Source of the DNA: Escherichia coli
GTDB lineage: Bacteria; Pseudomonadota; Gammaproteobacteria; Enterobacterales; Enterobacteriaceae
DNA length: 64,000 nt
NCBI RefSeq assembly: GCF_036507355.1
Contig: NZ_AP027877.1
Reading direction: 5' to 3' (one strand)
Of this stretch, positions 11,827-59,049 are shown piece by piece (position 1 is the stretch's first letter; each line of letters starts with the position of its first letter). The notes under the pieces are model-generated. The model made no database searches. It was not told the DNA's origin and worked only from the letters and a program-made list of their open reading frames with translations. The position numbers and the translations under genes are program-made.

Positions 11827-11827
11827 T

Positions 11828-22799: not shown

Positions 22800-22893
22800 A
22801 CCGGTCACCAGGACCCCAGGCCGGATTTAAGACGAGGATGCACTGCTGTGTGTACTGTAGAGTCTGGCGGATGTCGACAGGCTCTATTTTTTT
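22800..22893 (+). ncRNA. mcaS: McaS-like small RNA
   Basis: accggtcaccaggaccccaggccggatttaagacgaggatgcactgctgtgtgtactgtagagtctggcggatgtcgacaggctctattttttt resembles remembered McaS; strand assignment tentative. Confidence 0.55.
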
Positions 22894-23272
22894 ATTCATT
22901 TTTTAGCTCTGTAAATAACCACATTCTCGCCGGGATTGGGGAATGAGTGACGAGATCAGTGGTGTCTGGCGGCTATCACGCCACAGAATCAAATAACAGA
23001 TAGCCTACGGTAAAATTTCGCTGACTGGAATTATCCCACCCTCGATCCATGTGATGGCTTGCCCTCATTTCTTCAGGCAGAAAAATCAAAAAATCGCTTT
23101 ATGCTATCAAACTGCGACAAACCAGACGCGAAACTGGGTACTTACTATTCGTTAGTCTTGCCCTATCCACTTATCTTTTTGGTGGTATGGCTGCTGATGT
23201 TGCTGGCGTGGTATCTTGTCGGTCTGCCGATAGGTCCGGGTATTTACCCACGTTTGTCTTAAGAGAGAACGG

Positions 23273-23788
23273 ATGCTGAGATTACTTGAAGAAAAAATTG
23301 CCACGCCACTGGGTCCACTGTGGGTGATTTGCGATGAGCAATTTCGCCTGCGGGCGGTTGAATGGGAAGAGTACAGCGAACGCATGGTGCAGCTGCTGGA
23401 CATCCATTATCGCAAAGAAGGCTATGAGCGCATTTCTGCCACCAACCCAGGTGGTTTAAGCGACAAGCTTCGTGAATATTTTGCCGGTAATCTTAGCATT
23501 ATTGATACGCTTCCCACTGCCACGGGGGGGACGCCATTTCAGCGCGAAGTCTGGAAAACACTGCGCACTATCCCCTGCGGGCAGGTAATGCATTACGGCC
23601 AACTGGCTGAACAATTGGGCCGCCCTGGCGCGGCGCGTGCCGTTGGTGCGGCAAACGGATCGAATCCCATCAGCATCGTCGTACCTTGCCATCGGGTTAT
23701 TGGCCGAAACGGCACCATGACCGGATATGCAGGCGGAGTTCAGCGAAAAGAGTGGTTATTGCGCCACGAAGGTTATCTTTTGCTGTAA
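23273..23788 (+). CDS. ogt: O6-methylguanine-DNA methyltransferase
   Basis: 171 aa with PCHRV active-site motif. Confidence 0.9.
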
Positions 23789-23982
23789 ACATTAAACAAT
23801 TTGTGCCAGCTTGTTCACACTTTTATGTAAAGTTACCCTTAACAACTTAAGGGTTTTCAAATAGATAGACATATATTTACATCTAATATCGGAATTCTCT
23901 GCTGTTAAGGTTTGCTTAGACTTACTTGCTCCCTAAAAAGATGTTAAAATTGACAAATATCAATTACGGCTTGAGCAGACCT

Positions 23983-24735
23983 ATGATCCCGGAAAAGCGA
24001 ATTATACGGCGCATTCAGTCTGGCGGTTGTGCTATCCATTGCCAGGATTGCAGCATCAGCCAGCTTTGCATCCCGTTCACACTCAACGAACATGAGCTTG
24101 ATCAGCTTGATAATATCATTGAGCGGAAGAAGCCTATTCAGAAAGGCCAGACGCTGTTTAAGGCTGGTGATGAACTTAAATCGCTTTATGCCATCCGCTC
24201 CGGTACGATTAAAAGTTATACCATCACTGAGCAAGGCGACGAGCAAATCACTGGTTTTCATTTAGCAGGTGACCTGGTGGGATTTGATGCCATCGGCAGC
24301 GGTCATCACCCGAGCTTCGCGCAGGCGCTGGAAACCTCGATGGTATGTGAAATCCCGTTCGAAACGCTGGACGATTTGTCCGGTAAAATGCCGAATCTGC
24401 GTCAGCAGATGATGCGTCTGATGAGCGGTGAAATCAAAGGCGATCAGGACATGATCCTGCTGTTGTCGAAGAAAAATGCCGAGGAACGTCTGGCTGCATT
24501 CATCTACAACCTGTCCCGTCGTTTTGCCCAACGCGGCTTCTCCCCTCGTGAATTCCGCCTGACGATGACTCGTGGCGATATCGGTAACTATCTGGGCCTG
24601 ACGGTAGAAACCATCAGCCGTCTGCTGGGTCGCTTCCAGAAAAGCGGCATGCTGGCAGTCAAAGGTAAATACATCACCATCGAAAATAACGATGCGCTGG
24701 CCCAGCTTGCTGGTCATACGCGTAACGTTGCCTGA
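23983..24735 (+). CDS. fnr: anaerobic global regulator FNR
   Basis: 250 aa [32 protein letters not shown]... with N-terminal Cys cluster and CRP-type HTH. Confidence 0.95.
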
Positions 24736-24886
24736 TTTTTCCGCATAACTCACTATCCTTCTGTCATATCATTAAATTTTTCTGATTTATTGATCTGGCA
24801 GAAGGTTCATCACTGTTTCATTCACCAGATATGGGTTAATCTTTTAATTACAAACTGCGTTGACAGTTGTTGTAAGGAGACCCTGT

Positions 24887-25837
24887 ATGGCTATGTATCA
24901 GAACATGCTCGTTGTTATCGATCCTAACCAGGACGACCAACCAGCATTGCGGCGAGCTGTTTATTTACATCAACGGATTGGTGGCAAAATTAAAGCCTTT
25001 TTGCCGATCTATGACTTCTCATACGAAATGACCACCCTGCTCTCCCCGGACGAACGTACCGCTATGCGTCAGGGCGTCATCAGCCAGCGTACAGCCTGGA
25101 TCCACGAGCAGGCAAAATATTATCTCAATGCTGGCGTTCCCATTGAAATTAAAGTGGTCTGGCATAACCGTCCTTTCGAAGCCATCATTCAGGAAGTGAT
25201 CAGCGGCGGGCACGATTTGGTGCTAAAAATGGCGCACCAACATGACCGTCTGGAAGCGGTGATTTTTACGCCAACGGACTGGCATCTGTTACGCAAATGC
25301 CCAAGCCCGGTGTGGATGGTGAAAGACCAGCCGTGGCCGGAAGGAGGTAAGGCGCTGGTGGCGGTGAATCTCGCCAGTGAAGAGCCGTATCATAATGCGC
25401 TCAATGAAAAACTGGTCAAAGAGACGATCGAACTGGCAGAACAAGTCAACCATACCGAAGTTCATCTGGTTGGCGCTTACCCAGTAACGCCAATTAATAT
25501 CGCGATTGAACTGCCGGAATTTGATCCGAGCGTTTATAACGATGCCATTCGTGGGCAACATTTGCTGGCAATGAAAGCTCTGCGGCAGAAATTCGGCATT
25601 AATGAAAACATGACGCACGTAGAAAAAGGTCTGCCAGAAGAGGTGATTCCTGATTTGGCGGAGCACTTACAGGCGGGGATTGTGGTTCTGGGTACGGTAG
25701 GACGCACCGGTATTTCAGCAGCATTCCTCGGCAACACGGCGGAACAGGTGATTGATCATCTTCGCTGCGATCTGTTGGTCATTAAACCTGACCAGTATCA
25801 GACACCCGTTGAACTGGATGACGAAGAAGACGATTAA
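24887..25837 (+). CDS. uspE: universal stress protein E (tandem Usp domains)
   Basis: 316 aa [25 protein letters not shown]... Confidence 0.9.
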
Positions 25838-25867
25838 CGACTCTTCAATAACTGACAAGGCCCGAGT

Positions 25868-25895
25868 TATCGGGCCTATTTTTTACTTACTGCTC
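25868..25895. terminator. bidirectional rho-independent terminator between uspE and ynaJ
   Basis: stem aggcccg/cgggcct followed by tatttttt. Confidence 0.6.
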
Positions 25896-26144
25896 TTCGC
25901 CGCCAAGGAAATAAATTCCCAACGGGATTGCCAGCAACACAGTAAAGACCAGGCTATAAACAAAAATCATCGATGACTGAATCACATACATTGATGTCGT
26001 CCACTCAGACAGCGGAATATTGTACTGTTCTATAACGCCGCCGATAGTCGCGCGAGTCACAACCGACGCCGCAATAATGAAAACCGCCAACAAACCAAAG
26101 AGAAATTTCTTCCCTTTCGCTGACTTCAGTTTCGCCATAATCAT
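25887..26144 (-). CDS. ynaJ: small inner membrane protein YnaJ
   Basis: 85 aa with two predicted TM helices. Confidence 0.75.
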   Translation of the reverse strand: MIMAKLKSAKGKKFLFGLLAVFIIAASVVTRATIGGVIEQYNIPLSEWTTSMYVIQSSMIFVYSLVFTVLLAIPLGIYFLGGEEQ

Positions 26145-26387
26145 GATGTAATCCTTGTGCAGACAAATTTCTTGTTACCTAAACGTAACAATACCATGAC
26201 ATTTCACCGTTGTCTGCTCTGAAAACCTCACCTCTTAGCTGGATTTACAATCAACGCATTGATTAGTTAGCTAATGTTGCTACTTCCTTCCCTGACTATT
26301 GATGATCTGAATGAATTGTCGCGGTAAAATAGCCCCGCCAGGGGTTTCCGGCATGACGACAATTATCTGGAGGAGCCTGATAAAACA

Positions 26388-27419
26388 ATGATCGCTGAAC
26401 TGTTTACAAATAATGCGCTTAATCTGGTCATTATTTTCGGTAGCTGCGCAGCATTGATTCTGATGAGCTTTTGGTTTCGCCGCGGAAATCGTAAAAGAAA
26501 AGGTTTTTTATTCCATGCGGTGCAATTTTTAATCTACACCATAATTATCAGTGCTGTTGGTAGCATTATTAATTATGTTATAGAAAACTATAAACTCAAA
26601 TTTATCACCCCAGGCGTTATCGATTTTATCTGTACGTCCCTGATTGCGGTTATTCTGACGATTAAGCTATTTTTGCTGATTAATCAGTTTGAAAAACAGC
26701 AGATTAAAAAAGGTCGCGATATCACCAGTGCGCGGATTATGTCGCGCATTATCAAAATCACCATTATTGTGGTGCTTGTTCTGCTTTATGGCGAACATTT
26801 TGGCATGAGCCTTTCTGGCTTGCTGACCTTTGGTGGTATTGGTGGTCTGGCTGTCGGTATGGCCGGTAAAGATATTCTGAGTAATTTCTTTTCCGGGATC
26901 ATGCTCTATTTCGACCGTCCTTTCAGTATTGGCGACTGGATCCGTTCACCGGACAGAAATATCGAAGGTACAGTAGCGGAAATTGGCTGGCGAATTACCA
27001 AAATTACGACCTTTGATAATCGTCCATTGTACGTACCGAACTCGCTGTTTTCGTCGATCAGCGTAGAAAACCCAGGACGAATGACCAACCGCCGCATTAC
27101 CACGACCATTGGTTTACGTTATGAGGATGCGGCAAAAGTGGGCGTTATTGTCGAAGCCGTACGTGAGATGCTGAAAAATCACCCGGCCATCGACCAGCGA
27201 CAAACCTTACTGGTTTATTTCAACCAGTTTGCTGACTCGTCATTGAATATTATGGTTTATTGCTTTACCAAAACCACGGTATGGGCTGAGTGGCTTGCTG
27301 CACAGCAAGACGTTTATTTGAAGATTATCGATATTGTACAGTCACACGGCGCGGACTTTGCCTTCCCCAGCCAGACGCTGTATATGGATAACATTACACC
27401 GCCGGAACAGGGTCGCTAA
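26388..27419 (+). CDS. ynaI: MscS-family mechanosensitive channel YnaI
   Basis: 343 aa, N-terminal TM helices plus MscS beta domain. Confidence 0.85.
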
Positions 27420-27430
27420 ATCAGACATCA

Positions 27431-27458
27431 CTGGCGTTATCCACAAGGGTAACGCCAG
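27431..27458. terminator. hairpin between convergent ynaI and mppA
   Basis: ctggcgtta/taacgccag stem; weak T-tract. Confidence 0.4.
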
Positions 27459-27469
27459 TTCCCATCACA

Positions 27470-29083
27470 TCAATGCTTCACAATATACATAGTCCGACTG
27501 TACGCCACATCTTCAGGGTTATTAATGGGATAACCTTTCAGCCACGGTTTGATTAATCGTCCATTGGTATATTGATAAATTGGTGCAATCGGTGCTTGCT
27601 CCATGAGGATTTTTTCTGCCGCGTTGTAATCGGCATTACGCGCTTTAACGGTATTTTCCGTCGATGCCTGGGCCAGAACTTTGTCGTATGCCGGATTGTT
27701 AAAGCGTGAAATATTTCCTGAATGCGTTGACGTTAATAATGTCAGGAAAGTGGAGGGTTCATTATAATCCCCCACCCATGAGGCGCGGATAACATCAAAA
27801 TTGCCGGTGTTACGGCTATCGATATAGGTTTTCCATTCCTGATTTTGCAATTTAACATCTACGCCAAGGTTCTTTTTCCACATCGATGCTACAGCAATCG
27901 CAATTTTTTGATGGTTTTCTGAAGTGTTATACAAAAGCGTCAGCTTCAGCGGTTTTTGCGGACCATAACCAGCTGCGCTCAACAAAGTTTTTGCCTGCGC
28001 ATTCAGTTCTTCCTGACTCATTTGTTCAAACGGCGAAGGTTCCGGCGTAAATCCGGCGGTAACATCTGGTGTAAAATGCCACGCTGGCTTTTCGCCCGTC
28101 CCTAATACTTTTTCGGTCATCAGGCGGCGATCTATCGTCATACTTAATGCCAGACGAACGCGCTGATCTGCCGTCGGCCCTTTTTGCGTGTTAAACGCAT
28201 AATAATAGGTCCCGAGCTGCGGCGGCGTATAAACCTGCCCCGGAATATCCTTCAACAGCTTCTGATACATATTTTTCGGGAAGGATTCGGTGATATCAAT
28301 ATCCCCCGCGAGGTAACGCTTAGTGGCTGCGGATTCCTGATTAATTGGCAGGAAGGTCACTTTTTGCAGTACCGTTTTGGCGTTATCCCAATAATGGGTA
28401 TTCGGTACCACGACCAGTTTTTCATTGACTACGCGCTCTTTAAGAACATAAGCGCCATTGCCGATCAGATTTCCGGGTTTCGTCCACTCTTTACCGCTTT
28501 CTACGTTGGCTTTTTGCACCGGGAAGAAGGCAAAGTTAGCGGTTAAATTCACAAACCACGGCAACGGTTTATCAAGCTGAATTTTCAAAGTATGGGCATC
28601 AACTGCGGTGACGCCAAGCTGGTCAGGCGTAGCTTTACCATCAATAATCGCCTGTGCGTTGTTGATTCCCGCCAGCGCGGCAAACCATGCAAATGGCGAT
28701 AGCGTTTTCGGGTCCACCAGACGCTGCCAGCTGTAGACAAAATCTTGCGCCGTTACCGGTGTGCCATCCGCCCATTTTGCGTTATCGCGCAGGGTAAAAG
28801 TCCAGATACGGTTGTCATTACTTTTCCACTGAGTCGCAACGCCGGGGACAATCTCCCCTTTCTCGTTCTGATTCACCAGTCCTTCAAACAGATCGCGAAT
28901 GACCTGAATCTCTGGCAGGCCCACGGCTTTAGCGGGATCCAGCGACGCAGGCTCATCTTTAATGTGGCGCACCAGCTCCTGCTTCTCTGCCAGTACTGTG
29001 CCGCTCGGAACTTCTGCAGCATACGAAAGAGAAATGCTGCTGACCAACAGCGCACAACACGTGACTGAAACAGAGTGCTTCAT
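27470..29083 (-). CDS. mppA: periplasmic murein tripeptide-binding protein MppA
   Basis: 537 aa with signal peptide; OppA-like family 5 substrate-binding protein; tracked ORF extends to 29104. Confidence 0.9.
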   Translation of the reverse strand: MKHSVSVTCCALLVSSISLSYAAEVPSGTVLAEKQELVRHIKDEPASLDPAKAVGLPEIQVIRDLFEGLVNQNEKGEIVPGVATQWKSNDNRIWTFTLRDNAKWADGTPVTAQDFVYSWQRLVDPKTLSPFAWFAALAGINNAQAIIDGKATPDQLGVTAVDAHTLKIQLDKPLPWFVNLTANFAFFPVQKANVESGKEWTKPGNLIGNGAYVLKERVVNEKLVVVPNTHYWDNAKTVLQKVTFLPINQESAATKRYLAGDIDITESFPKNMYQKLLKDIPGQVYTPPQLGTYYYAFNTQKGPTADQRVRLALSMTIDRRLMTEKVLGTGEKPAWHFTPDVTAGFTPEPSPFEQMSQEELNAQAKTLLSAAGYGPQKPLKLTLLYNTSENHQKIAIAVASMWKKNLGVDVKLQNQEWKTYIDSRNTGNFDVIRASWVGDYNEPSTFLTLLTSTHSGNISRFNNPAYDKVLAQASTENTVKARNADYNAAEKILMEQAPIAPIYQYTNGRLIKPWLKGYPINNPEDVAYSRTMYIVKH

Positions 29084-30822: not shown

Positions 30823-31635
30823 GTGCTGGATGTTCATCCCAGTGGTTTTTACGCCTGGCTTCAGCAGCCGCATTCACAACGCCATCAGGCAGACCTGAGG
30901 CTGACAGGGCAGATTAAACAGTTCTGGCTGGAATCGGGATGCGTCTATGGTTATCGCAAAATCCATCTGGATCTGCGGGACAGCGGGCAACAGTGCGGAG
31001 TGAACAGAGTCTGGCGACTGATGAAACGTGTCGGGATAAAGGCTCAGGTCGGATACCGGAGCCCGCGGGCACGTAAAGGCGAGGCCAGTATCGTGTCGCC
31101 CAACAGGCTCCAGCGACAGTTCAATCCGGATGCTCCGGATAAGCGTTGGGTAACGGACATAACCTACATCAGGACCCACGAAGGCTGGCTGTATCTTGCC
31201 GTGGTTGTTGATCTGTTCTCACGCAAAATTATCGGCTGGTCCATGCAATCCCGGATGACAAAGGACATTGTCCTGAACGCACTGCTGATGGCTGTATGGC
31301 GCCGTAATCCCCAAAAACAGGTGCTGGTTCATTCGGATCAGGGCAGTCAGTACACAAGCCATGAGTGGCAGTCGTTCCTGAAATCACACGGCCTGGATGG
31401 CAGCATGAGCCGTCGCGGTAACTGCCATGATAATGCGGTTGCAGAAAGCTTTTTCCAGTTGTTGAAACGCGAACGGATAAAGAAAAAGATCTACGGAACG
31501 CGGGAAGAAGCCCGCAGCGATATTTTTGATTACATCGAAATGTTTTATAACAGTAAGCGTCGGCATGGTTCCAGCGATCAGATGTCACCGACAGAATATG
31601 AAAACCAGTATTATCAACGGCTCGGAAGTGTCTAG
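30823..31635 (+). CDS. IS3-family transposase OrfB (DDE integrase)
   Basis: 270 aa with DDE residues in WVTDITY...HSDQGSQYTS...CHDNAVAESFF context. Confidence 0.85.
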   Translation: MLDVHPSGFYAWLQQPHSQRHQADLRLTGQIKQFWLESGCVYGYRKIHLDLRDSGQQCGVNRVWRLMKRVGIKAQVGYRSPRARKGEASIVSPNRLQRQFNPDAPDKRWVTDITYIRTHEGWLYLAVVVDLFSRKIIGWSMQSRMTKDIVLNALLMAVWRRNPQKQVLVHSDQGSQYTSHEWQSFLKSHGLDGSMSRRGNCHDNAVAESFFQLLKRERIKKKIYGTREEARSDIFDYIEMFYNSKRRHGSSDQMSPTEYENQYYQRLGSV

Positions 31636-32154: not shown

Positions 32155-32857
32155 ATGACCGTAACCCGCCCACGCGCCGAACGCGGCGCATTTCCGCCCG
32201 GAACAGAACATTACGGACGTTCATTATTGGGCGCGCCGTTAATCTGGTTTCCGGCCCCTGCAGCCAGTCGCGAAAGTGGTTTGATTCTGGCTGGCACTCA
32301 CGGTGATGAAAACTCTTCGGTCGTCACGCTCTCCTGTGCTCTGCGGACTTTGACACCTTCTTTGCGCCGCCATCATGTGGTGCTGTGTGTGAATCCTGAC
32401 GGCTGCTAGCTGGGGTTACGGGCCAATGCTAATGGTGTGGATTTAAACAGAAACTTTCCGGCGGCGAACTGGAAGGAAGGTGAAACGGTTTATCGCTGGA
32501 ACAGCGCCGCTGAAGAACGTGATGTCGTTTTACTGACAGGTGGCAAACCTGGCTCCGAACCTGAAACCCAGGCGCTGTGCCAGCTTATACACCGCATTCA
32601 ACCTGCCTGGGTGGTCTCATTCCACGATCCACTGGCCTGTATTGAAGATCCCAGACACAGCGAATTAGGCGAATGGCTGGCTCAGGCGTTTGAATTGCCT
32701 CTGGTAACCAGCGTCGGTTATGAAACGCCTGGCTCTTTCGGCAGTTGGTGTGCAGATCTGAACTTGCATTGCATCACCGCAGAGTTTCCGCCCATCTCCT
32801 CCGACGAAGCCAGCGAAAAATATCTCTTTGCGATGGCAAACTTGCTGCGCTGGCATC

Positions 32858-39900: not shown

Positions 39901-40806
39901 TCAGAACGAGTAATTTACGCCGACACCTGCATAATGGAATTTATCACTGTCTCCTTCGTCGTGATCCTGCCACTCAAACGCGTATTCCAGCGAAACGGAA
40001 AGACCATTCTGGAAATCATAACCGTAAAATAAACCCACACGGTTAAAATCATGGCCTTCACGTTCAATATCATCCTGCCAGTCCCAGTTACTCCAGCGAT
40101 CCAGCCCAATGCGCGTATACGGCGTCACCGAGTGGTTGCCGAGCGTCAGCGGCAAATAGGCGCGAATTTCTTGCGTGGAAAACTCACCGTTATTGCGGCT
40201 GTCGTCCATATTGAAGCCGCGCTCGAGATAATAGTTCACTCGCAAAGCAACCGTTTCGTTGAAGGTATATTGCAGACCTGTTTCCGTTTCGACACGGGTA
40301 TCAGCGTAACCGGTCGTGTTCAAATCGTTGGCAAATTTATACATCGACAACCAACCGTTGAAACGTAAATCGTCAGTCAGTTTCACATCCCAATCTGGCG
40401 CGATTTTCCAGCGCTGCATATTCGCCGTGTCTTTACCCGGTTCATCAACGTAGTGATAACCATAATTACGGAAACCGCCGGTCAGGCCGAAACTGAAATC
40501 ATCGCTTTCGAGGAACTGATAATGCACCTCCAGCTCCGGGCGATCAAACCACGTTCCACGTTTACCCGCGCTATAATCTACCGGCCCTTCCTGATAATAG
40601 GCCAAAGAAATTCTCCACGGCCCGTTGGCAGCATTAAAATAGACAGAAGGCTCCGCCAGCCCATTCATATCTTCGCCATAACCCTCGACGTTTTCTATTT
40701 CGTACATCGCGCCGATATTAAAGTGCCAGTCGTTTCTTTCCTCGGCCTGTGCGCAGGCCATTCCCGCACACATCACCAGTGCGGTACAGGGTAATAACTT
40801 TTTCAT
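39901..40806 (-). CDS. ompG: outer membrane porin OmpG
   Basis: 301 aa beta-barrel with signal peptide, C-terminal VNYSF. Confidence 0.9.
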   Translation of the reverse strand: MKKLLPCTALVMCAGMACAQAEERNDWHFNIGAMYEIENVEGYGEDMNGLAEPSVYFNAANGPWRISLAYYQEGPVDYSAGKRGTWFDRPELEVHYQFLESDDFSFGLTGGFRNYGYHYVDEPGKDTANMQRWKIAPDWDVKLTDDLRFNGWLSMYKFANDLNTTGYADTRVETETGLQYTFNETVALRVNYYLERGFNMDDSRNNGEFSTQEIRAYLPLTLGNHSVTPYTRIGLDRWSNWDWQDDIEREGHDFNRVGLFYGYDFQNGLSVSLEYAFEWQDHDEGDSDKFHYAGVGVNYSF

Positions 40807-40850: not shown

Positions 40851-41933
40851 TTAGCGAATTGCTATTTCCGTTTCTGCATCAAAGAAATGACATTTAGTCA
40901 TATCAAAATGAATAGTGATATTTTCTCCTGCATGATAATCATTTAACGCACCAGCACGGACCACTAACTCGTGCCCCCCAACCGTGGTGTAGAGCATAAA
41001 TTCCGCACCGGTTAATTCTGCCACGCTAATTTTGGCGGAAATGTTATTTTCCTCTTGCGCGTCCGGATGAATATCTTCCGGGCGTATTCCCATCACGATG
41101 GGCTTATGCAAACTTTCCTGTGTTTTCAGAACCGCTAATTTCTCTTCGGGAATGGTTAATTTAAGCGTTTCCGTAACGAATTTATCGCCATCGATCGTGC
41201 CGCGAATAAAATTCATCGCTGGTGAGCCAATAAATCCGGCAACAAACATATTCGCGGGTTGGTTATAAACCGTTTTCGGCGCACCTACTTGTTGAACAAT
41301 CCCGTCTTTCATAATCACAATCCGCGTCGCCATGGTCATCGCTTCGGTCTGATCGTGGGTCACGTAGATCATGGTGGTGTTCAGTTTCTGATGCAGCTTG
41401 CTGATCTCTGCGCGCATTTGTACGCGCAGCTTGGCATCAAGGTTAGAGAGCGGTTCATCCATTAAAAACACGCCCGCTTCGCGCACAATCGCCCGCCCGA
41501 GCGCTACACGCTGGCGTTACCCGCCGGAAAGCGCGCCCGGCTTGCGTTTCAGGTACTCACGCAGGCCGAGAATTTGCGCCGCCCAGTTCACCCGCTCATC
41601 AATCACCTCTTTGGCGATTTTTTGCATCTTCAGGCCAAACGCCATGTTGTCGTAGACCGCCATATGCGGATACAGCGCGTAGTTCTGAAACACCATCGCG
41701 ATATTGCGTGCTTTGGCTGGAACGTCATTCATTCGTTTGCCGTCGATCAACAGATCGCCGCCGCTGATCTCCTCAAGCCCGGCAATCATGCGCAGGGTGG
41801 TCGATTTACCGCAGCCTGACGGACCGACAAACACGATGAACTCTTTATCGGCAATTTCCAGGTTGAAGTCCTTCACCACATGCACCTGGTTATCGTAGAT
41901 TTTTTGAATATGTTGTAACGAAAGCTGAGCCAT
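40851..41933 (-). pseudogene. ycjV: ABC transporter ATP-binding protein YcjV with nonsense codon in the signature motif
   Basis: two ORFs (138 aa + 211 aa); at ~41500 the frame reads LSGG-stop-RQRVALGRAI, i.e. TAA in place of the Q of LSGGQ. Confidence 0.85.
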
Positions 41934-41946: not shown

Positions 41947-44802
41947 CTATACGTTTTGCCAGAAGGCCGATAACCGCGACCAGGTCAGGGAGTCCGTTGA
42001 AGGCAATAGTAATTGCGCCCCGGTTAAGCCCGCGCCGATCCCCACCGAGCGCATACCGCTGGCGTTAATGGCGTCAATGCCCGCCTGCGCATCTTCAATG
42101 CCGATACATGCCTGCGGCGGCACGCCCAGCCCGGCACAAGCAGCGAGAAAGATTTCCGGATCCGGTTTCGAGTTTTTAAGTTGGGAAGCATCCGCGCAGA
42201 AGGTGAAAAACTCGCGCAGCTCCAGCGCCGCTAAAATCGTCGGCGCATTCAGGGAGACGGAAGCCAGCCCTACCGGAATCTGCTGTGCACGGAGCTCTGC
42301 CAGCAAATTGCGAATACCGGGCAGCACAGCATTAACCGTCAGCTCGCGCAGTGAGTGGACGTAGAGCAGATTTTTGCGATACGCCAGTTGCGCCCGCTCC
42401 TGCGAGTTAAAGTCGCCCTCTTTGCCCCCGTATTGCAGAATGCGCCGCAGAGACTCATCGCGGCTAATCCCTTTTAGGGATTCGTTAAACTGCGCATCAA
42501 TGCTGATGCCAATTTCAGCGGCAATCTGCTGCCACGCCTGGAAATGCAGATGCGTGGTAGCGGTCCCATTGAAGGGCAAAATAAAATCAACCAAACAGAA
42601 AACAGATTCTTCAGCCACGGATATAAGCTGCCCGTTCAAACGCAGTGAAACGGGCGCAGAAGTTCGAATCGCAATACGCTGCGCGTCGAGCGTGACCTGT
42701 AATTCGCAGCCCTGCCAGAACAGAGGGAAAGACAACTGTTGCCACTGCTCCGGTAACGCCGGATTGAGATGTAATTCACCGTCACGCACGCTCACCCCGG
42801 CAAAACCCTGAATTGCCCCCAGCCAGATAGCGCCAGTTGCGGCAGCGTGGATACCATCATCACAACTATGCGGATCAGCACCAAGATCGATTTCAGTCCC
42901 CTCGCGCCAGAACTGATAACTTTGGGTCAGCAGGCCACAGCGTGCGGCAACAATGCCGTGGATTGCTTTACTTAATGACGAGTCGTGAATAGTGCGCGGT
43001 TCATAAAATTGCAGATTGGCAAGACACGATACCGCTGAGAACTGCTCCGGCAGCATGTAATTGAGCATCACCACATCAGCTTGTTTGAGGATCTGCATCT
43101 CGTTCACTTCTGCGCGTGAATAATCCAGCAGAATGGTTTGCTTCCCCGCCGCCGCTTTGTATTTAGCCAGATTAATCGCCGGCTTAGCCATAAACGAATC
43201 ATCCTGCGGCAAAACGCCATCGGGCTGCGTTTCTGGCATCCATAGCTCTTTGAGGAACATTTCGGCCCGATGGATAAACGCATCGTCGCTACAGCCGAAC
43301 TGGCGGGCAATATTCAGCGCCTGTTGAACGTTGTAGCGGGCCATATAGCTGGTGTATGCATTATTATTGACATGTTCGGTATATTCGTCTGGTCCAATAA
43401 CATCATGAATTTCCAGACGATCGTTAACTCTCACCGCGCGGCTAATCCAGAACTTTGCCGTCTCCAGAAGTAGCGCCATGCCTTCATGAGCAATGAAACT
43501 TTCATCCCCCGTTGTCTGCCAGTATTGAATAACCGCCCAGGCGATATCGGCGACCAGATGATGTTCCGCCTGCGCCGAGGCCACTTTTTGCCGCAGCCCG
43601 GTGCGAATGTTAATGGCGGCAAATTCCGGCGTCTCTTCTTCGCCGCTGCGCGCGCTTTCCCACGGAAATAGCGCGCCCTGCCAGCCATTGCGTCGCGCTT
43701 TCTCCTGCGCGCCAGGCAAGTTGTGCCAGCAATAACGCAGTAAACTTCGGGCAACCGTCGGATCGCTAAACAGATGAAACGGTAGCAAAAATACTTCTGT
43801 ATCCCAGAAAACGTGGCCTTTGTAGCCTTCGCCGGTTAAGCCTTTTGCCGCAATACTGCTGCGCTCGTCGTGGGCGGGCGTCATGATGCGCAGATGATAA
43901 AGTGCATAATCTAACGCTTGCTGATCGTGCGCATCGCCGCCGTTTACCGTGATACGACGTTTCTGCCACAACTGACGCCAGTTTTCTGTTGATGCTGCAA
44001 GAAGTTGGTCGTAACTCTGCTGCGCACACATTTCAAGCTGGCGAAGCGACGCACTGCCCCACTCGTCTAAAGCAGCTTGCCTGTCATCCCGCCAGTCGAT
44101 CCACACCCGTTTTTGCAACGTCACTGTCTCGCCTGCATGAAGCTGCGCACTGGTATGTTGCAGCAAACGGCGCTCTTTGGCGGTATAGCATTGCTGCACA
44201 TCACCGCTCACCTTACAGCAACAGCTGATGGCCACATCACTGCGTCCATCCTGGGTGGTGTAGATCCCCTGCATCAGATGCTGACCAAACACCCGCACCT
44301 GGGTTTCGTCGAGATGCTGGCGACCGTGGTTGGTTTGCGTGGCGTCGATACCTGTTGAAATCAGCACTGACGCGACGGCGTCCAGTGGCGTAATAGTGAT
44401 TTCCAGCGCAATGAGCGGCAGTTGGTCTGCCGAAACAAAGCGACGGCTGGCGATGGTGTAACCTGCGCCGTTGCTGGTACGCCAGACAACGTTGCGGCGT
44501 AATTCGCCACTGGCAAAGTCAAGCTCACGCTGCCAGGCTTCGTGGGATAACGAGAAAACCTCACCATTTATGGCAATCTCCATCCCCAAGATATCAGGCA
44601 GGTTCACCAGTTCGTTGATTTCACCTTTACCCGCCCGATGATACAGCCCCGCCAGATACATTCCTCGCGTCTGGCGCGTGTAATCTTCTTCATGGCTGGC
44701 GCGAAGCCCAAGATAGCCGTTCCCCTGCGCCATCAGCGATGCATACTTGTTCAGGGTATGCTGGCTGAAATGGGGTTCTGATAACGTTACTGGCCTGGTC
44801 AT
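41947..44802 (-). CDS. ycjT: single 951-aa ORF combining a GH65 kojibiose phosphorylase-like region (YcjT) with a HAD beta-phosphoglucomutase-like region (YcjU)
   Basis: continuous frame; C-terminal ~200 aa ([18 protein letters not shown]...SAFWQNV) is HAD/beta-PGM-like but has no DxDG motif upstream in any frame. Confidence 0.7.
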
Positions 44803-45674
44803 AATTCCACACGCGTCCCTGTTTCTGCGGATTGATATAACGCCGCCACCAGTTGCTGGATGATGTACCCCTGCTCGGCGTCGGCTATCATCACGGGCTT
44901 GCCCTGTACGTGATTGATAAAGGCTTCCATGCTGCGCAAATGGCGGTTGTCGTCTGCCATTTCCCGTTGCATCAGCGTCATTAACTCACCGTTGTTATCG
45001 GTGTAGATATGTGCTGGAAACAGCGTCGCACCGGCTTTATCACCACAAAAGCTGACGTTCATAATCGACTGTTCGCGGATGTTGAGTGCAAATGACGTTT
45101 CCAGCCACAGAATGCCGATGTCGATCAGCGGGCCACCACCCTGCAGTTCTTTATTGGTAAAGACGCCCCAGCCGGGAACGCCGCAGCGACGCAGGGCGCG
45201 GGCGGTGGTAACGTAAATCTCTCCCAAAACGCCGTTGGTCACCTGTTCGCGCAGCTGTTGCGTATCGAGCGCAAAACGATGGTGAAAGTCGTAGGCCAGC
45301 ACCTTGCCCTGTTTGCGCGCGATATCGCACATTTCCCGCGCCTGTTCTGGCGTCATGGCGGGCGGTTTTTCGCACATCACATGGCAGCCCGCTTCCAGTG
45401 CCATCAGGGTATGTTCGTAATGAAAACGGTTAGGTGAGCAGACGCTAACCACATCAGGTTTCACCGCCAGCAGCATGGCCTGCGGATCGTCCCACACGGA
45501 TGCATTACCGTATTTATCTGCCAGCGCCTGCGCCTGGGAAAGGCAGCTGTCACAGACAGCCACCAGTTCCAGATCGTTGCGGGTGCAGTAGTACGAAGCA
45601 TGAACCTTATCCGCCACCTGGCCTGCGCCTATTATCGCGACCCGCAGCGGAGAGCTTGTCATTGCACTTTTCAC
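44799..45674 (-). CDS. ycjS: Gfo/Idh/MocA-family oxidoreductase YcjS
   Basis: 291 aa with N-terminal Rossmann motif [11 protein letters not shown]. Confidence 0.75.
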
Positions 45675-50596: not shown

Positions 50597-50972
50597 GAGA
50601 TGTTCCTTTTTATTTAATCCACATAACCTGCCAGGGGCGCAGCGTTATTTCATTACCCAATATATCAACTTCACTAATCAGATCCCGACCATGCAGATCA
50701 GTAATATTTACATGCTGAATATTTTCACTGACATTAAACAATCCAGTCAGACAATTACCATCAGCGTTACTTCTTTGAATACGCATTACGGATGAATTAA
50801 CCGTATCAATGGTAAAATTATTATCCGGATGAAACTCGTTATGGCTGCGACGAAGTGTAATTAAACGCGACAACTCATGATATACCGCATGCCTTAATGT
50901 AGCTTCATCGTTCAGTTGGTGATGCTGCCAACTTACTGATTTAGTGTATGATGGTGTTTTTGAGGTGCTCCA

Positions 50973-51248
50973 GTGGCTTCTGTTTCTATCAGCTGTCCCT
51001 CCTGTTCAGCTACTGACGGGGTGGTGCGTAACGGCAAAAGCACCGCCGGACATCAGCGCTATCTCTGCTCTCACTGCCGTAAAACATGGCAACTGCAGTT
51101 CACTTACACCGCTTCTCAACCCGGTACGCACCAGAAAATCATTGATATGGCCATGAATGGCGTTGGATGCCGGGCAACAGCCCGCATTATGGGCATTGGC
51201 CTCAACACGATTTTACGTCACTTAAAAAACTCAGGCCGCAGTCGGTAA
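50973..51248 (+). CDS. insA: IS1 InsA
   Basis: identical to the insA at 10432. Confidence 0.9.
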
Positions 51249-51670
51249 CCTCGCGCATACAGCCGGGCAGTGACGTCATCGTCTGCGCGGAAATGGACGA
51301 ACAGTGGGGCTATGTCGGGGCTAAATCGCGCCAGCGCTGGCTGTTTTACGCGTATGACAGGCTCCGGAAGACGGTTGTTGCGCACGTATTCGGTGAACGC
51401 ACGATGGCGACGCTGGGGCGTCTTATGAGCCTGCTGTCACCCTTTGACGTGGTGATATGGATGACGGATGGCTGGCCGCTGTATGAATCCCGCCTGAAGG
51501 GAAAGCTGCACGTAATCAGCAAGCGATATACGCAGCGAATTGAGCGGCATAACCTGAATCTGAGGCAGCACCTGGCACGGCTGGGACGGAAGTCGCTGTC
51601 GTTCTCAAAATCGGTGGAGCTGCATGACAAAGTCATCGGGCATTATCTGAACATAAAACACTATCAATAA
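51167..51670 (+). CDS. insB: IS1 InsB
   Basis: identical to the insB at 10626. Confidence 0.85.
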
Positions 51671-53276
51671 GTTGGAGTCATTACCCGTTCAGTTCTCGTG
51701 TTATCTCTTCACTGTGATATTTTTTACGGTTAATCGCACGGTTATATCCGAGTTTTTCGACACCTGCGTAATCATTACGCGAGCCCAGAATACTTTGAAT
51801 ATATATCGCTGGCACACCGGGGAAACTTAACAAAATCGCATGGGCAAGGATAAACCTGGCGCAACGTTCTTCATCGCTACTCTCGCGGCGGCTTAACGCA
51901 TCCATATAGGTGACATTTATTTCATAGGGACTGCGCGTACCGTCGGGATTATTTTTCCAGTTTACTAATGCACCTTCCTGCTGTAATGCCTCGATCAGCG
52001 CTAATATTTCGCTTTCTGGTAACAAGCCCCGCAGTGGGTTCAGCCCGATGCCATCGTGAGAGGCGAGGAAGTTAAACCAGGTCGTTTTACCGGAGGGCAA
52101 GCTCAGACTTTGCGCCCACTGGCACAGCGCCTCGACGTTCTGTTTTTGCACCGCATGTAACACCAGCGGCGGCAGCGAGAACTGGTACACCATATGCGCT
52201 TCGTCATCGCCTTCGCCAAAGTAAGCAATGTTATCTTTATGCGGAACATTCGTCTCAGTAATAATCACCGTACCTGGCGCGATGTCATCAATAATCGACC
52301 GTAACAGTTTGATAATCAGATGTGTTTTTTCCAGATGGATGCAGCTTGTTCCCGGCTCTTTCCACATAAAGCCAACGGCATCCAGACGGACATATTCTGC
52401 GCCCTTTTCCAGGTAGCACAGCAATACATCCACCATCGCCAGCAACACTTCAGGGCTACGGTAATTGAGGTCAATTTGATCGTCGCTAAAGGTGGTCCAT
52501 AAATGGCGCGTGGAATTATCATCCATTTGAAACGGCGTTAATAGCGGTAACGCACGCGGACGGGTGACGGCACTGAGATCGGTTTTCGGATCAACCGCAA
52601 TAAAGAAATCTTTAAAACCCGGAAGCTGTTGCAAATAGTTTTTAAACCATTCACTTTTTGCCGACATATGGTTGCAGACAAAATCAAACATTAAATGACT
52701 GCATTCACCGAGCTGCTGAATATCCTGCCACTCCCCCGCTTCACTGGCGACCTGATGATAATCAATTACCGAAAATCCATCATCAGATGACCATGGATAA
52801 AAAGGTAATAAATGAACATGTGAAAAAATGCTTTGCAGCCATTGGTGGTAAAACTGATTAAATGTGGGTAGTGGTTTTAAATCATTACTGTGAAATTGAT
52901 CGGCATAGGTAATTAACACGACGTCACTTTCATCCCAGTGTTTTTTACGTCGCTGTGTAATTAATCGTTTCGCACTCTCAAGACGCGTTACAAGTTTCTG
53001 TAAATGAGTTGCGGTAAATGTTCCACCGTAGATTTCGCCCAGGTAATCCGTAATTTTCTGTTTCATGTTGCCTTTCCGTGGTAGCGGTCCCATGAAACGA
53101 GAGACTACTCCGCAGAAAATAAACTGTCAATTGAGCACAAGGGTTTTAGTCACGCAGGAAATCATTTTTTACCAGGGAAAAAGCGTATTTGTGAGCTGAC
53201 GCAAATAATCTATAGGGATGTAAATAAGGTGTGACAGAAAAAAACGGCGCATAAGCGCCGCTCATGGTGAATTCTT

Positions 53277-53591
53277 TTAACCTTTGACCTTCGGCATTGC
53301 GATGTCTTTCAGGCCACCGGCGTTCTCAACGTGGGTATATCCCATCTCGCTAAGGATCTCTTTTGCCTGCCCGGACTGGCGTCCGGCATTGCAATACACT
53401 TTCACGGTGTCGTTTTTATCCGGAACGGCGGTGGCAATGCGTTCTTTCACTTCCTTCAGGGGAATATTGATGGCCCCCTGAACGTGCTCCTGCTGATACT
53501 GCTCTGGAACACGAACATCGATCCAGTGTTCAGCGGCGAAAACGGGCAGTGAAAACACCAGTGCCAGAGCAAGTAAGCCTTTTTTAAACAT
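53277..53591 (-). CDS. pspE: thiosulfate sulfurtransferase PspE (rhodanese)
   Basis: 104 aa with signal peptide and active-site Cys (YCNAGRQS). Confidence 0.9.
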   Translation of the reverse strand: MFKKGLLALALVFSLPVFAAEHWIDVRVPEQYQQEHVQGAINIPLKEVKERIATAVPDKNDTVKVYCNAGRQSGQAKEILSEMGYTHVENAGGLKDIAMPKVKG

Positions 53592-53665
53592 GTAAGCGTC
53601 CTTCTATGGATGAAAATTGCCATCCATTATACGCCTGAGATTTAACAATTTTTGCGAAACTCCCC

Positions 53666-53887
53666 TCACCTTTTATAACGCTGTGCCAGTTTATTGGCAG
53701 CCCGACTTAACAGCGGTTCCAGCGCCACAGCCAGCAACATTTTCAGCGGTCGGCGAGCAACTGATTTTATCGCCCAGCCCGCCACACCCGCCGGGCCATA
53801 GCGCAGTGCGGTAAGAAGTACCAGCTTGCCTGCTAATTTGAAACCAGGCTTCACCTTTTGCCCGGCCTGTTGCCAGCGAGTATTCAT
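53666..53887 (-). CDS. pspD: phage shock protein D
   Basis: 73 aa [25 protein letters not shown]... Confidence 0.8.
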
Positions 53888-53895
53888 AACTTTCC

Positions 53896-54255
53896 TCACA
53901 GTTGACGGAAACGGCTACGTAACGTGAATGTATCGGAAGTGACATAACGTTCCATCTCGCGTAAACGCGTTTCACTTGCCGCCAGTTCACGGTCGACTTC
54001 ATCCAGCAATTCACTGCTGGAAGGTAGCTGCTCACCAAAAGCCATGTTGTCCGGCATTGGATCAAGCGCAAATGACAAAATGATGTAAGCAACCAGGGTA
54101 AACAGCGCCAGACCGAAGAAAATCGACAGCACCACCAGGATACGCACCAGTTTTACCGGTACATCAAAATAGTTGGCAATCCCGGCGCAGACGCCACGGA
54201 CCATGCCCTGCTGTGGAATACGCCATAATTTTTTATTGAGATTAATGCCCGCCAT
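53896..54255 (-). CDS. pspC: phage shock protein C
   Basis: 119 aa with single TM helix. Confidence 0.9.
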
Positions 54256-54479
54256 TAGCGATCCCTCCAGTTCGGATGTTCTGCATCAAGAATAGATTCC
54301 AGCGCCTGAATACGTTCGCGCATCCGTTTTGCTTCATCAGCCAGTTGCGCTAATCGCTGCTGCTCACTTTGCGACAATTCACTGCGACCAGAACGATTGC
54401 TGTAATGCAGCCATAACCAGATCGGTAAAACAAACAGCACAAAAATGGTTAATGGAATAGCCAGAAATAGCGCGCTCAT
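54255..54479 (-). CDS. pspB: phage shock protein B
   Basis: 74 aa, N-terminal TM helix. Confidence 0.9.
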   Translation of the reverse strand: MSALFLAIPLTIFVLFVLPIWLWLHYSNRSGRSELSQSEQQRLAQLADEAKRMRERIQALESILDAEHPNWRDR

Positions 54480-54532
54480 AAGTACTCCTTAGACGATGAG
54501 CGGCGGCGCTTTCGGACGCCGCCTGGATGTTA

Positions 54533-55273
<741 letters not shown>

Positions 55274-55367
55274 TTATCTTTTTGATTTATAAAGATCTGA
55301 TTGAAGAATCAACAGCAACATGCCAGGATGAATTAGCGAATTACACTAACAAGTGGCGAATTTCATC

Positions 55368-56345
55368 ATGGCAGAATACAAAGATAATTTACTTGGTGAG
55401 GCGAACAGCTTTCTCGAAGTGCTGGAACAGGTTTCGCATCTCGCACCGCTGGACAAACCGGTGCTCATCATCGGCGAACGCGGCACCGGTAAAGAGCTGA
55501 TCGCCAGCCGCCTGCATTATCTCTCCTCCCGTTGGCAAGGGCCGTTTATTTCCCTTAACTGCGCGGCGTTAAATGAAAATCTGCTGGATTCCGAACTGTT
55601 TGGTCACGAAGCGGGGGCGTTTACCGGTGCGCAAAAACGTCATCCAGGGAGATTTGAACGTGCCGACGGCGGTACGCTATTTCTTGATGAACTCGCTACA
55701 GCACCGATGATGGTGCAGGAAAAATTATTGCGCGTGATTGAGTACGGTGAACTGGAGCGCGTTGGCGGCAGCCAGCCGTTGCAGGTGAATGTGCGGTTGG
55801 TATGCGCGACGAATGCCGATCTCCCGGCGATGGTCAATGAAGGTACTTTTCGCGCTGACCTGCTCGACCGCCTGGCTTTTGATGTTGTGCAACTGCCACC
55901 ACTGCGCGAGCGCGAAAGCGACATTATGTTGATGGCGGAACACTTTGCCATCCAGATGTGTCGGGAAATCAAGCTGCCTCTGTTCCCGGGTTTTACCGAG
56001 CACGCCAGAGAAACATTGCTGAATTATCGTTGGCCGGGAAATATTCGTGAATTGAAAAACGTGGTGGAACGTTCAGTGTATCGCCACGGCACCAGCGATT
56101 ATCCGCTTGATGACATCATTATTGATCCCTTTAAACGGCGTCCGCCTGAAGACGCTATCGCCGTTTCAGAAACCACCTCGCTTCCAACACTGCCGCTGGA
56201 TTTACGTGAGTTTCAGATGCAGCAGGAAAAAGAGTTGCTGCAACTCAGTTTGCAACAAGGGAAATATAACCAGAAGCGTGCGGCTGAATTACTGGGGTTA
56301 ACCTATCATCAGTTCCGCGCGTTGTTGAAAAAGCACCAGATTTAG
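55368..56345 (+). CDS. pspF: sigma54-dependent activator PspF
   Basis: 325 aa AAA+ enhancer-binding protein (GERGTGKE, GAFTGA motif) lacking a receiver domain; C-terminal HTH. Confidence 0.95.
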   Translation: MAEYKDNLLGEANSFLEVLEQVSHLAPLDKPVLIIGERGTGKELIASRLHYLSSRWQGPFISLNCAALNENLLDSELFGHEAGAFTGAQKRHPGRFERADGGTLFLDELATAPMMVQEKLLRVIEYGELERVGGSQPLQVNVRLVCATNADLPAMVNEGTFRADLLDRLAFDVVQLPPLRERESDIMLMAEHFAIQMCREIKLPLFPGFTEHARETLLNYRWPGNIRELKNVVERSVYRHGTSDYPLDDIIIDPFKRRPPEDAIAVSETTSLPTLPLDLREFQMQQEKELLQLSLQQGKYNQKRAAELLGLTYHQFRALLKKHQI

Positions 56346-56366
56346 CGAAGTTGGGCAATACAACTT

Positions 56367-56450
56367 GCCGGATGCGGCGTGAATGCTTTATCCGGCATAC
56401 ATAATCAATACGTCGTTTGCAGGCCTGATAAGCGCAGCGCATCAGACATT
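56367..56450. repeat. REP elements between pspF and puuE
   Basis: gccggatgcggcgtgaatgctttatccggc and ggcctgataagcgcagcgcatcag palindromic units. Confidence 0.6.
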
Positions 56451-56464
56451 ATTGCGTTGGGCTA

Positions 56465-57730
56465 TTAATCGCTCAGCGCATCCTGCAAAATTTTCATTGC
56501 CGCATCGAATTGCGCATCCGGGATGGTCAGCGGATACAGGAAACGAATCACGTTGCCATACGCGCCGCAGGTCAGCAGTAGCAGCCCCTGCGCCAGCGCG
56601 CGTTGCTGGATTTTCTGTGCAATCGCCGCTGACGGCTCGCCCGTTTGCGGATCGTTAAACTCTGCCGCAATCATAGACCCCAGACCGCGTACCGCCGCGA
56701 TGGCCGGAACGCTTTCTTTGGCATCAATCAGCGTGTTTGTCAGACGCTGGCCAAGTTGATTCGCGCGTTCGCAGAGTGATTCTTTGTCGATAATGTTGAG
56801 CACCGCGTGCGCGGCAGCCACCGCCAGCGGGTTACCGGCGTAGGTGCCGCCAAGCCCGCCCGGCGCGGGTGCGTCCATAATATTCGCGTTACCGACCACG
56901 CCCGAAAGCGGCATCCCGCCCGCGAGGCTTTTCGCCATCGTCATTAAATCCGGCTTATCGGCGTAATGATCCATGGCAAACAGCTTACCGGTACGCGCAA
57001 AGCCGCTTTGCACTTCATCAGCAATCATCACAATACCGTGCTCGTCGCACAGGCGGCGAATGGCGGCAACCAGCTCTTTGGGTGCAACGTTGAAACCGCC
57101 CTCGCCCTGCACTGGTTCGAAAATAATCGCCGCCACCTGCTTCGCTTCAATGTCCGATTTAAACAAGCGTTCGATGGCGTCGAGCGAGTCCTGCGTTGAA
57201 ACGCCATGTAAATCTGACGGATAAGGCACGTGATACACCGAACCAGGGAACGGGCCGAAGCCAATTTTGTACGGCGCGACTTTTCCAGTCAGCGCCATGG
57301 TCATATACGTGCGACCGTGGAAGCCGCCGCTAAACGCAATCACGCCAGGGCGTCCGGTATGGGCGCGAGCAATTTTCACCGCGTTCTCAACCGCTTCCGC
57401 GCCGGTAGTGAAGAACGCGGTTTTGGCCTGCCCGCTCACCGGGGCAAGGGCGTTGATTTTCTCCGCCAGGGTGACGTAGCTTTCATACGGCACAATCTGA
57501 TACGCGGTGTGGGTAAACTGTTGCAGTTGCTGCTCCACCGCCGCGACCAGATCAGGGTGGCGATGTCCGGTATTCAGCACCGCAATGCCTGCGGCGAAAT
57601 CGATGTACTCGTTGCCCTCAACATCCTTCAGCGTAGCGTTTTCAGCCGACTGGGCGAAGAAGTTACACATCACGCCAACCCCGCGCGGGGTGGCAGAAAG
57701 ACGACGCTGATGGAATTCATTGTTGCTCAT
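56465..57730 (-). CDS. puuE: 4-aminobutyrate aminotransferase PuuE
   Basis: 421 aa class-III PLP aminotransferase. Confidence 0.9.
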   Translation of the reverse strand: MSNNEFHQRRLSATPRGVGVMCNFFAQSAENATLKDVEGNEYIDFAAGIAVLNTGHRHPDLVAAVEQQLQQFTHTAYQIVPYESYVTLAEKINALAPVSGQAKTAFFTTGAEAVENAVKIARAHTGRPGVIAFSGGFHGRTYMTMALTGKVAPYKIGFGPFPGSVYHVPYPSDLHGVSTQDSLDAIERLFKSDIEAKQVAAIIFEPVQGEGGFNVAPKELVAAIRRLCDEHGIVMIADEVQSGFARTGKLFAMDHYADKPDLMTMAKSLAGGMPLSGVVGNANIMDAPAPGGLGGTYAGNPLAVAAAHAVLNIIDKESLCERANQLGQRLTNTLIDAKESVPAIAAVRGLGSMIAAEFNDPQTGEPSAAIAQKIQQRALAQGLLLLTCGAYGNVIRFLYPLTIPDAQFDAAMKILQDALSD

Positions 57731-57767
57731 GTTTCACACCTTTTGACTCTTCACTGTTAATCGGAAA

Positions 57768-59048
57768 TTAAACGCCCAGACGATCGCGCAGGCTGTAATA
57801 AGCCGCGCCCATCGCGGTAAACGGCACACGCAGCGTGCGCCCGCCGGGGAACGGGTAATGCGGCAGATTGGCGAAGGCGTCGAAACGTTCGGCGTCGCCG
57901 CGCAGCAGTTCAGCAATCAAGCGCCCGGCAAGATGGGTACAGGTGACGCCGTGTCCGCTGTAGCCCTGCATGTAATAGATGTTGGTATCGAGGCGACCAA
58001 ACTGCGGCATACGCGACAGGGTCAGCAGGAAGTTGCCCGTCCAGCGGTAGTCGATTTTCACGCCCTTCAGCTGCGGGAAGGTTTTCAGCAGTTTCGGCAC
58101 CACAAGGCGCTCAACATCGTCCGGGTCGCGCGCGCCGTACACCACGCCGCCGCCGTACAGCAAACGGTTATCGGCGGTAAGACGGTAGTAATCAAGCAGA
58201 TAATTACAGTCTTCCACACAGTAGTTTTTCGGGATCAGCGAACGGGCTAAATCATCGGAAAGCCGCTCGGTGGTGATCACCTGCGTGCCGCACGGCATAC
58301 TACGCTTCGCCAGTTCCGGCTCCACTTTATCGCCCAGGTACGCATTCCCGGCGACAATCACATACTTCGCCGTCACCTGGCCTTTGGTAGTACGCACCAC
58401 GGCGGGCGTGGTGTGCTGGATCTGCGTCACCGCAGAAAGTTCATACACGCGCCCGCCGTTCAGGCGGATAGCGTCCGCTTCGCCAATGGCGAGGTTCAAC
58501 GGGTGAATATGCCCGCCGCTGTGATCCAACAGCGCGCCGGTGTAGCGGTCGCTGGCCACTTCACGGCGAATGGCGTTGGCGTCCAGCAGTTCCAGCTGTT
58601 TATTGCCGTAGCGTTCCCAGTTCTCTTTCTGCTCTTCGAGTGTGGCGAGCTGTTTATCATTCATCGCCACAAACAGACCGCCGGGACGGTAGTCGCAGTT
58701 AATCTGATAACGTTTGATACGTTCGCGGATGATCTCACCACCTTCGAACATCATGCTGCCGAGCATACGGGCGGTGTCCATGCCGTAGCTTTTTTCGATC
58801 ACGTCGATGTCGCGGCTGTAGGAGTTCACAATCTGCCCGCCGTTGCGTCCGCTTGCGCCGAAGCCGATGCGTGAGGCTTCAAGAACCACCACGTCAAAGC
58901 CCGCTTCCGCCAGATGAAGCGCGGAGGAGAGCCCGGTATAGCCGCCGCCAACCACGCAAACGTCGCAGGAAATCGACTCATTCAGCGTGTCGAATGGCGC
59001 GTATTTATTCGCACTGGCGGTGTAATAACTGCTGGTATGTTCGGTCAT
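57768..59048 (-). CDS. puuB: gamma-glutamylputrescine oxidase PuuB
   Basis: 426 aa FAD-dependent oxidoreductase with GGGYTG dinucleotide motif. Confidence 0.9.
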   Translation of the reverse strand: MTEHTSSYYTASANKYAPFDTLNESISCDVCVVGGGYTGLSSALHLAEAGFDVVVLEASRIGFGASGRNGGQIVNSYSRDIDVIEKSYGMDTARMLGSMMFEGGEIIRERIKRYQINCDYRPGGLFVAMNDKQLATLEEQKENWERYGNKQLELLDANAIRREVASDRYTGALLDHSGGHIHPLNLAIGEADAIRLNGGRVYELSAVTQIQHTTPAVVRTTKGQVTAKYVIVAGNAYLGDKVEPELAKRSMPCGTQVITTERLSDDLARSLIPKNYCVEDCNYLLDYYRLTADNRLLYGGGVVYGARDPDDVERLVVPKLLKTFPQLKGVKIDYRWTGNFLLTLSRMPQFGRLDTNIYYMQGYSGHGVTCTHLAGRLIAELLRGDAERFDAFANLPHYPFPGGRTLRVPFTAMGAAYYSLRDRLGV

Positions 59049-59049
59049 T

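Follow-up and report, generated by a model that had tools for sequence, protein, structure and literature searches.

A probable recent nonsense pseudogene of the ABC ATPase gene ycjV in a decaying ycj operon of Escherichia coli

The ycjV gene in the Escherichia coli DNA analysed here, a stretch of 64,000 nucleotides referred to below as the window, is interrupted by a single ochre codon at the glutamine of the LSGGQ signature motif. The allele is very probably an ordinary nonsense pseudogene, recent and restricted to one lineage, within a generally decaying operon, and it is unrelated to the frameshift found in K-12. Close orthologues of the gene are intact, whereas in the window the early stop in ycjV is accompanied by three further lesions: ycjM is interrupted by IS1, ycjS has lost 180 bp, and a 68-bp deletion joins ycjT to pgmB.

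The ochre codon of ycjV and its products

The gene and the frames derived from it are listed by window position.
40851..41933, minus strand: ycjV pseudogene, 360 codons plus stop (1,083 nt), defined by translation and by alignment with reference ycjV
41517..41519, minus strand: TAA (ochre) at codon 139, where CAA would encode the Gln of LSGGQ; a C-to-T transition at gene position 415, with C as the following base
41658..41660, minus strand: private missense change T92A (ACG to GCG) at gene position 274, in the conserved segment LYPHMTVYDN; of 13 haplotypes, only that of the window lineage has it
41520..41933, minus strand: N-terminal open reading frame of 138 codons, with Walker A (GPSGCGKS), the Q-loop and LSGG, and without Walker B, D-loop, H-loop and regulatory domain
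40851..41486, minus strand: downstream in-frame open reading frame of 211 amino acids starting at GTG codon 150 (with an ATG at codon 158), with Walker B (FLMDEP), SNLD, THD and OB_MalK/TOBE

The gene lies between pgmB (ycjU) and ompG in the order ycjM-N-O-P-Q-R-S-T-pgmB-ycjV-ompG, with a divergent ycjW, is highly identical to annotated ycjV and matches 4,980 complete genomes of E. coli at 96–99.3% DNA identity. This combination of synteny and identity establishes that the gene is ycjV. Translation of the minus strand from 41933 to 40848 yielded one internal stop, at codon 139, followed by the normal stop at codon 361; TAA is the sole disruption of the frame. Compared with three reference ycjV genes (K-12 ER3413, O157:H7 and the closest haplotype, OZ197100), all of which have CAA at this position, codon 139 differs by a single C-to-T change. 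The initial annotation had read a nonsense codon in place of the Q of LSGGQ with normal sequence resuming behind it, and translation and alignment agree: the frame reads LSGG, then TAA, and stays intact to codon 361. It had placed the lesion at 41487-41516, a few bases away: the TAA itself occupies 41519..41517, and that span corresponds to the next ten codons (RQRVALGRAI).

When Gln139 is restored in silico, Pfam assigns ABC_tran to residues 21-162, OB_MalK to 236-288 and TOBE_2 to 282-351, and the best solved homologue is Bacillus subtilis MsmX (6yir, E=6e-148), aligned end to end, including the stretch 'alsggqrqrvalgraivr'. The alignment and the domain assignments together place the stop at the Q of the LSGGQ signature. 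The gene thus belongs to the MalK/MsmX type and encodes the nucleotide-binding subunit of the YcjNOP sugar ABC importer; the intact E. coli protein (WP_000057985.1) hydrolyses ATP (PMC7658222).

Like B. subtilis MsmX (6yir) and E. coli MalK (1q12), the Q-restored protein has all the ATPase motifs and the C-terminal OB/TOBE region. In contrast, the ycjV frame of the window ends inside the signature motif, and its product is not a complete member of the family. The P-loop (GPSGCGKS, residues 37-44, matching GxxGxGKS/T) precedes the stop, and the C-loop breaks off after LSGG. FLMDEP, SNLD and THD all follow codon 139 and can be reached only from the 211-residue frame, which gene callers list as a separate protein; the OB_MalK/TOBE residues 236-351 are likewise encoded past the stop. 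From the standard ABC ATPase mechanism, we expect that translation ending after 138 residues would leave a product unable to form an ATP-hydrolysing dimer, as it would lack the complete signature, Walker B, D-loop, H-loop and TOBE, and the YcjNOP importer would lose its cognate ATPase motor.

Three changes in ycjV are private to the window lineage, namely T92A, Q139* and one synonymous substitution. Because only two private changes accompany it, the stop must be young.

Lesions across the ycj operon and the lineage that carries them

The remaining lesions of the operon, and the gene downstream of ycjV, are the following.
41947..44802, minus strand: ycjT-pgmB fusion open reading frame of 951 amino acids, produced by loss of 68 bp between direct repeats of 6 bp (CGCATC), with the junction at about 42555/42554
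44799..45674, minus strand: ycjS with an in-frame deletion of 180 bp (60 codons), 291 amino acids instead of 351, between 8-bp direct repeats CGGCATTC; junction at about 45118/45117
50918..51685, no strand assigned: IS1 of 768 bp in ycjM, containing InsA/InsB open reading frames, bounded by 23-bp terminal inverted repeats and flanked by the copies of a 9-bp target duplication CGTTCAGTT at 50909-50917 and 51686-51694
39901..40806, minus strand: intact ompG, 301 amino acids, 45 nt downstream of ycjV, 99% identical to K-12 OmpG and free of stops

Of these genes, ycjT is that of kojibiose phosphorylase, pgmB that of beta-phosphoglucomutase and ycjM that of glucosylglycerate phosphorylase. IS1 splits ycjM into 51686..53066 and 50613..50917. 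Lost with the 68 bp are 5 codons at the end of ycjT and 18 at the start of pgmB, the latter with the catalytic DLDG motif (HAD nucleophile); the resulting fusion and the 180-bp deletion in ycjS are both also found in loci L004-L006. Damaged genes are concentrated in the operon, with 4 of 11 genes affected versus 3 of 38 elsewhere in the window (Fisher p=0.036). Q139* would accordingly fit as one step in the neutral or relaxed-selection decay of a pathway that the window lineage no longer uses. The four lesions within the operon may have arisen in any order, and the ycjV stop may be either a cause or a consequence of relaxed selection. The roughly 660 nt of untranslated mRNA behind the stop may expose ompG to Rho-dependent polarity. 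A promoter and terminator scan around ycjV-ompG returned counts close to shuffled expectation, with no operon-sense promoter-like site for ompG.

The allele recurs in public data. Proteins identical to the 138- and 211-residue products have been deposited as BED22594.1/BED22593.1, from a 4.64-Mb E. coli chromosome, and as CDK53487.1. Contigs of GCA_905398585.1, SRR31122001 and SRR32181686 are 99.97–99.99% identical to the window over 8-12 kb and have all lesions in common with it. Within the window lineage, the identical allele is found in at least five independent assemblies, each with the same ycjS and ycjT-pgmB deletions, and ycjV is identical among all members of the lineage. The lineage is missing among 5,426 complete RefSeq genomes, where the best identity reaches 99.3% for ycjV and 98.1% for the 10.8-kb psp-puu region.

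Across the whole window, resemblance to K-12 forms a mosaic (for example, 53200-64000 versus 23273-29083). The products of mppA, ynaI, ynaJ, uspE, fnr and ogt have 100% identity to those of K-12, and in the psp-puu and ycj regions none of the 5,426 complete E. coli genomes exceeds 98.1% DNA identity. These observations indicate a rare and recombinant lineage.

Several features elsewhere in the window were recorded in passing. The murein tripeptide amidase gene mpaA is a nonsense pseudogene with TAG at codon 85 (Q85*, Q in K-12; 32407-32409, plus strand), and in smrA a TAG replaces K175 of the K-12 protein (K175*; 18560-18562, minus strand), ending the frame 13 codons early. At 19279-23119 the K-12 abgR-abgA-abgB-abgT block is gone except for the last 47 codons of abgT, and its place is taken by an AraC-family regulator, an HlyD-family adaptor and an MFS transporter, the latter split, probably by a frameshift, into overlapping frames at 19279-19989 and 19938-20792. 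Two IS3-family transposase frames (rve/HTH_21) lie at 30823-31635 (plus strand) and 6893-7759 (minus strand), the first where ycjY of K-12 is missing. A Rac-prophage remnant at 5139-13063 contains intR (100% identical to the K-12 protein), recT, a truncated recE-like DUF3799 frame and trkG, with an IS3-family element inside it.

Recurrence of the stop and its possible function

We surveyed codon 139 in complete E. coli genomes by megablast, with an exact 28-mer needed for a match and with 55-mers centred on the variable base that match only genomes with that base, in four haplotype backgrounds. CAA was found in 4,975 of the 5,426 genomes and TAA in five; the T-probes gave six matches, comprising these five true alleles and one deletion junction. 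All five are annotated in RefSeq as ycjV pseudogenes with an 'internal stop'. They belong to A17 (otter, Mexico) and to a clone of four isolates from four countries, B2, PSJ-14, STK39-3-E and EC529 (the B2 clone), whose ycjV genes are identical to one another.

T415 occurs on three haplotypes (the window, A17 and the B2 clone), which differ from each other at 22-26 of 1,083 sites. T415 of the B2 clone is flanked by distinguishing SNPs as near as 16 nt on the upstream side and 5 nt on the downstream side, a spacing that excludes import by recombination and identifies an independent mutation. The ycjV genes of A17 and the window, on the other hand, are identical from position 280 to 428, and their T415 may have a common origin through a short recombination tract. 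Judged from these haplotypes, T415 arose at least twice and probably three times. The A17 and B2-clone pseudogenes resemble the window allele in having the same CAA-to-TAA change at codon 139. They differ in sitting on other haplotypes, in loci without the ycjS and ycjT-pgmB deletions, where the annotation gives ycjS, ycjT and pgmB as intact and ycjR, in so far as it is covered, is undamaged too; these loci stop short of ycjM, and there the stop is an isolated lesion.

Since single transitions can create stops at 24 positions of ycjV, we extended the survey to all of them. Concatenated probes were built in 13 haplotype backgrounds, separated by spacer bases unobserved in the 13 haplotypes, and were checked in silico for wild-type 28-mers. 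Matches were obtained in 22 genomes at nine codons.
Codon 3: 5 genomes
Codon 16: 2 genomes
Codon 139: 5 genomes
Codon 141: 1 genome
Codon 142: 3 genomes
Codon 195 or 214: 1 genome
Codon 215: 1 genome
Codon 272: 1 genome
Codon 293: 2 genomes
The 22nd match is a deletion junction in NCTC9088 (positions 5001-5028 of locus L009), where a pgmB-to-ycjV deletion has its right end exactly at gene position 415. Together, the matches represent roughly 10-12 independent events. The calculated probability that at least two of some 10-12 events fall on one prespecified site of the 24 is about 0.06-0.09, and that of some site being hit twice exceeds 0.9; the former value makes the recurrence at codon 139 compatible with chance.

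The strongest alternative to ordinary decay is a hotspot of mutation at codon 139, or positive selection for loss of function there. It draws on the three divergent haplotypes, on the independent mutation in the B2 clone and on the NCTC9088 deletion that ends at the same base. We nevertheless consider it very unlikely: the events are spread over nine of the 24 possible sites at a frequency compatible with chance, A17 and the window may share one origin, and selection would be served equally well by any loss-of-function mutation. Neither a quasi-palindrome nor a Dcm CCWGG motif is evident in the sequence at GGGCAAC. A stricter form, in which this codon (GGG-CAA-C) is a true recurrent target, struck two or three times by CAA-to-TAA and once by a deletion end through a local hotspot or an advantage of truncation at the signature, is slightly less probable still. 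If there were such an advantage, the 138-residue product or a restarted C-terminal fragment might act, for example, in a regulatory or dominant-negative manner on other CUT1 importers that share MalK-like ATPases. The three haplotypes could hint at more than neutral decay, with an excess that is not significant. As for the place of the stop, its position in the signature motif has no special meaning, codon 139 being one of the 24 single-transition stop sites of the gene.

Retained function, either by readthrough or suppression of UAA at codon 139 or by a restart at GTG150 or ATG158 that yields a split ATPase, is very improbable. With C as the next base, UAA stands in the weakest context for an ochre codon, the sequence past the stop is undamaged, and the same stop arose more than once. 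Predicted anti-Shine-Dalgarno pairing reaches -6.3 kcal/mol upstream of GTG150 and -7.0 kcal/mol upstream of ATG158, compared with -5.6 kcal/mol at the native start. This moderate complementarity, 30-57 nt after the stop, makes re-initiation at either codon conceivable. However, the stop is not conserved (five genomes versus 4,975), and the intactness of the downstream sequence is explained by the youth of the lesion, which only two other private changes accompany. A product restarted at GTG150 would be missing residues 139-149, and one restarted at ATG158 residues 139-157; this would take away the post-signature helix and part of the strand that bears Walker B, and a complete ATP site would be found in neither fragment. 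With the rest of the pathway broken in the window lineage, there would also be nothing for the ATPase to serve. Without a suppressor tRNA, E. coli reads through UAA only at a very low rate. Nor does the codon resemble programmed recoding by selenocysteine, pyrrolysine or conserved readthrough, as it is a UAA with that same restricted distribution and neither a UGA with SECIS nor a UAG with PYLIS. Low-level readthrough of this codon, or re-initiation beyond it, may still take place in what is otherwise best regarded as a nonsense pseudogene.

A sequencing or assembly error at a true CAA codon can be given virtually no credence. The change is a single-base difference from all close relatives, but at least five assemblies of independent origin show the identical allele along with the ycjS and ycjT-pgmB deletions, and five complete RefSeq genomes from other lineages carry this substitution as well; moreover, a systematic error is unlikely for a substitution outside a homopolymer. 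The initial annotation had been prepared to give up the lesion if reference strains had an intact Q codon and the change in this strain proved to be a sequencing error; reference strains do have CAA, but the independent assemblies contradict the error.

The K-12 allele and repeated loss of ycjV

The initial annotation had described ycjV as a pseudogene in K-12 as well, which is correct: RefSeq labels b1318 'ABC transporter ATP-binding protein, frameshifted'. Its further suggestion that the lesion is old and shared does not hold, because K-12 has CAA at codon 139 and its frameshift lies elsewhere, while TAA is limited to five of the 5,426 genomes. The K-12 defect is the loss of one G from a run of six at about nucleotide 955 (GGGGG), a run that is intact in the window (GGGGGG). 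The two pseudogenes are alike in being inactivated alleles of the same dispensable ATPase gene, at the same ycjT-pgmB-ycjV-ompG position and with 97.7% DNA identity. They differ in that the G-run loss truncates only the TOBE domain, whereas the nonsense codon at 139 strikes the catalytic core, and their origins are independent.

A 49-nt probe, designed so that each of its 28-mers crosses the shortened G-run, detected the K-12-type frameshift in 371 of the 5,426 genomes, mostly K-12 laboratory strains (MG1655, DH10B, BW25113, JM109, HB101, MC4100, J53). The same G6-to-G5 change is present in OkiPb01676 and OkiPb01710, bovine isolates whose genomes of 5.2-5.3 Mb are not of K-12 size, which suggests independent homopolymer slippage or sequencing errors. 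The comparison across E. coli and Shigella that the initial annotation had proposed finds CAA in 4,975 genomes and, in S. flexneri 2850-71, Q141* instead. An ancient K-12-type allele widespread across E. coli and Shigella, which the K-12 pseudogene annotation might bring to mind, has next to no probability given these distributions, the different Shigella lesion and the intact annotation of ycjV in ten wild strains sampled over the 96-99% identity range.

The Shigella allele offers the closest parallel to the window. In S. flexneri, ycjV is split into frames of 140 and 218 amino acids, a pair very similar to that of the window, by a nonsense codon two codons away in the same QRQR stretch. Unlike the window allele, however, it arose from CAG to TAG at codon 141, which is a separate event. 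Other isolates carry W117* or 1-bp frameshifts, and in FAM21845 an IS1-family transposase is annotated inside the span of the ycjV match. A ycjV match is missing altogether in about 425 of the 5,426 genomes, with the neighbouring psp-puu region present in 5,421. In both E. coli and Shigella, ycjV has lost its function in many independent ways. The gene serves as a neutral integration site in W3110 (PMC6527064).

The window gene is best labelled a ycjV pseudogene with an internal stop, rather than as two hypothetical proteins (BED22593/BED22594) or as the K-12 frameshift allele. Its importance beyond annotation is small: it provides a modest case of the repeated loss of accessory sugar pathways in E. 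coli, in a lineage whose entire ycj kojibiose/guloside operon is breaking down under four different lesions.
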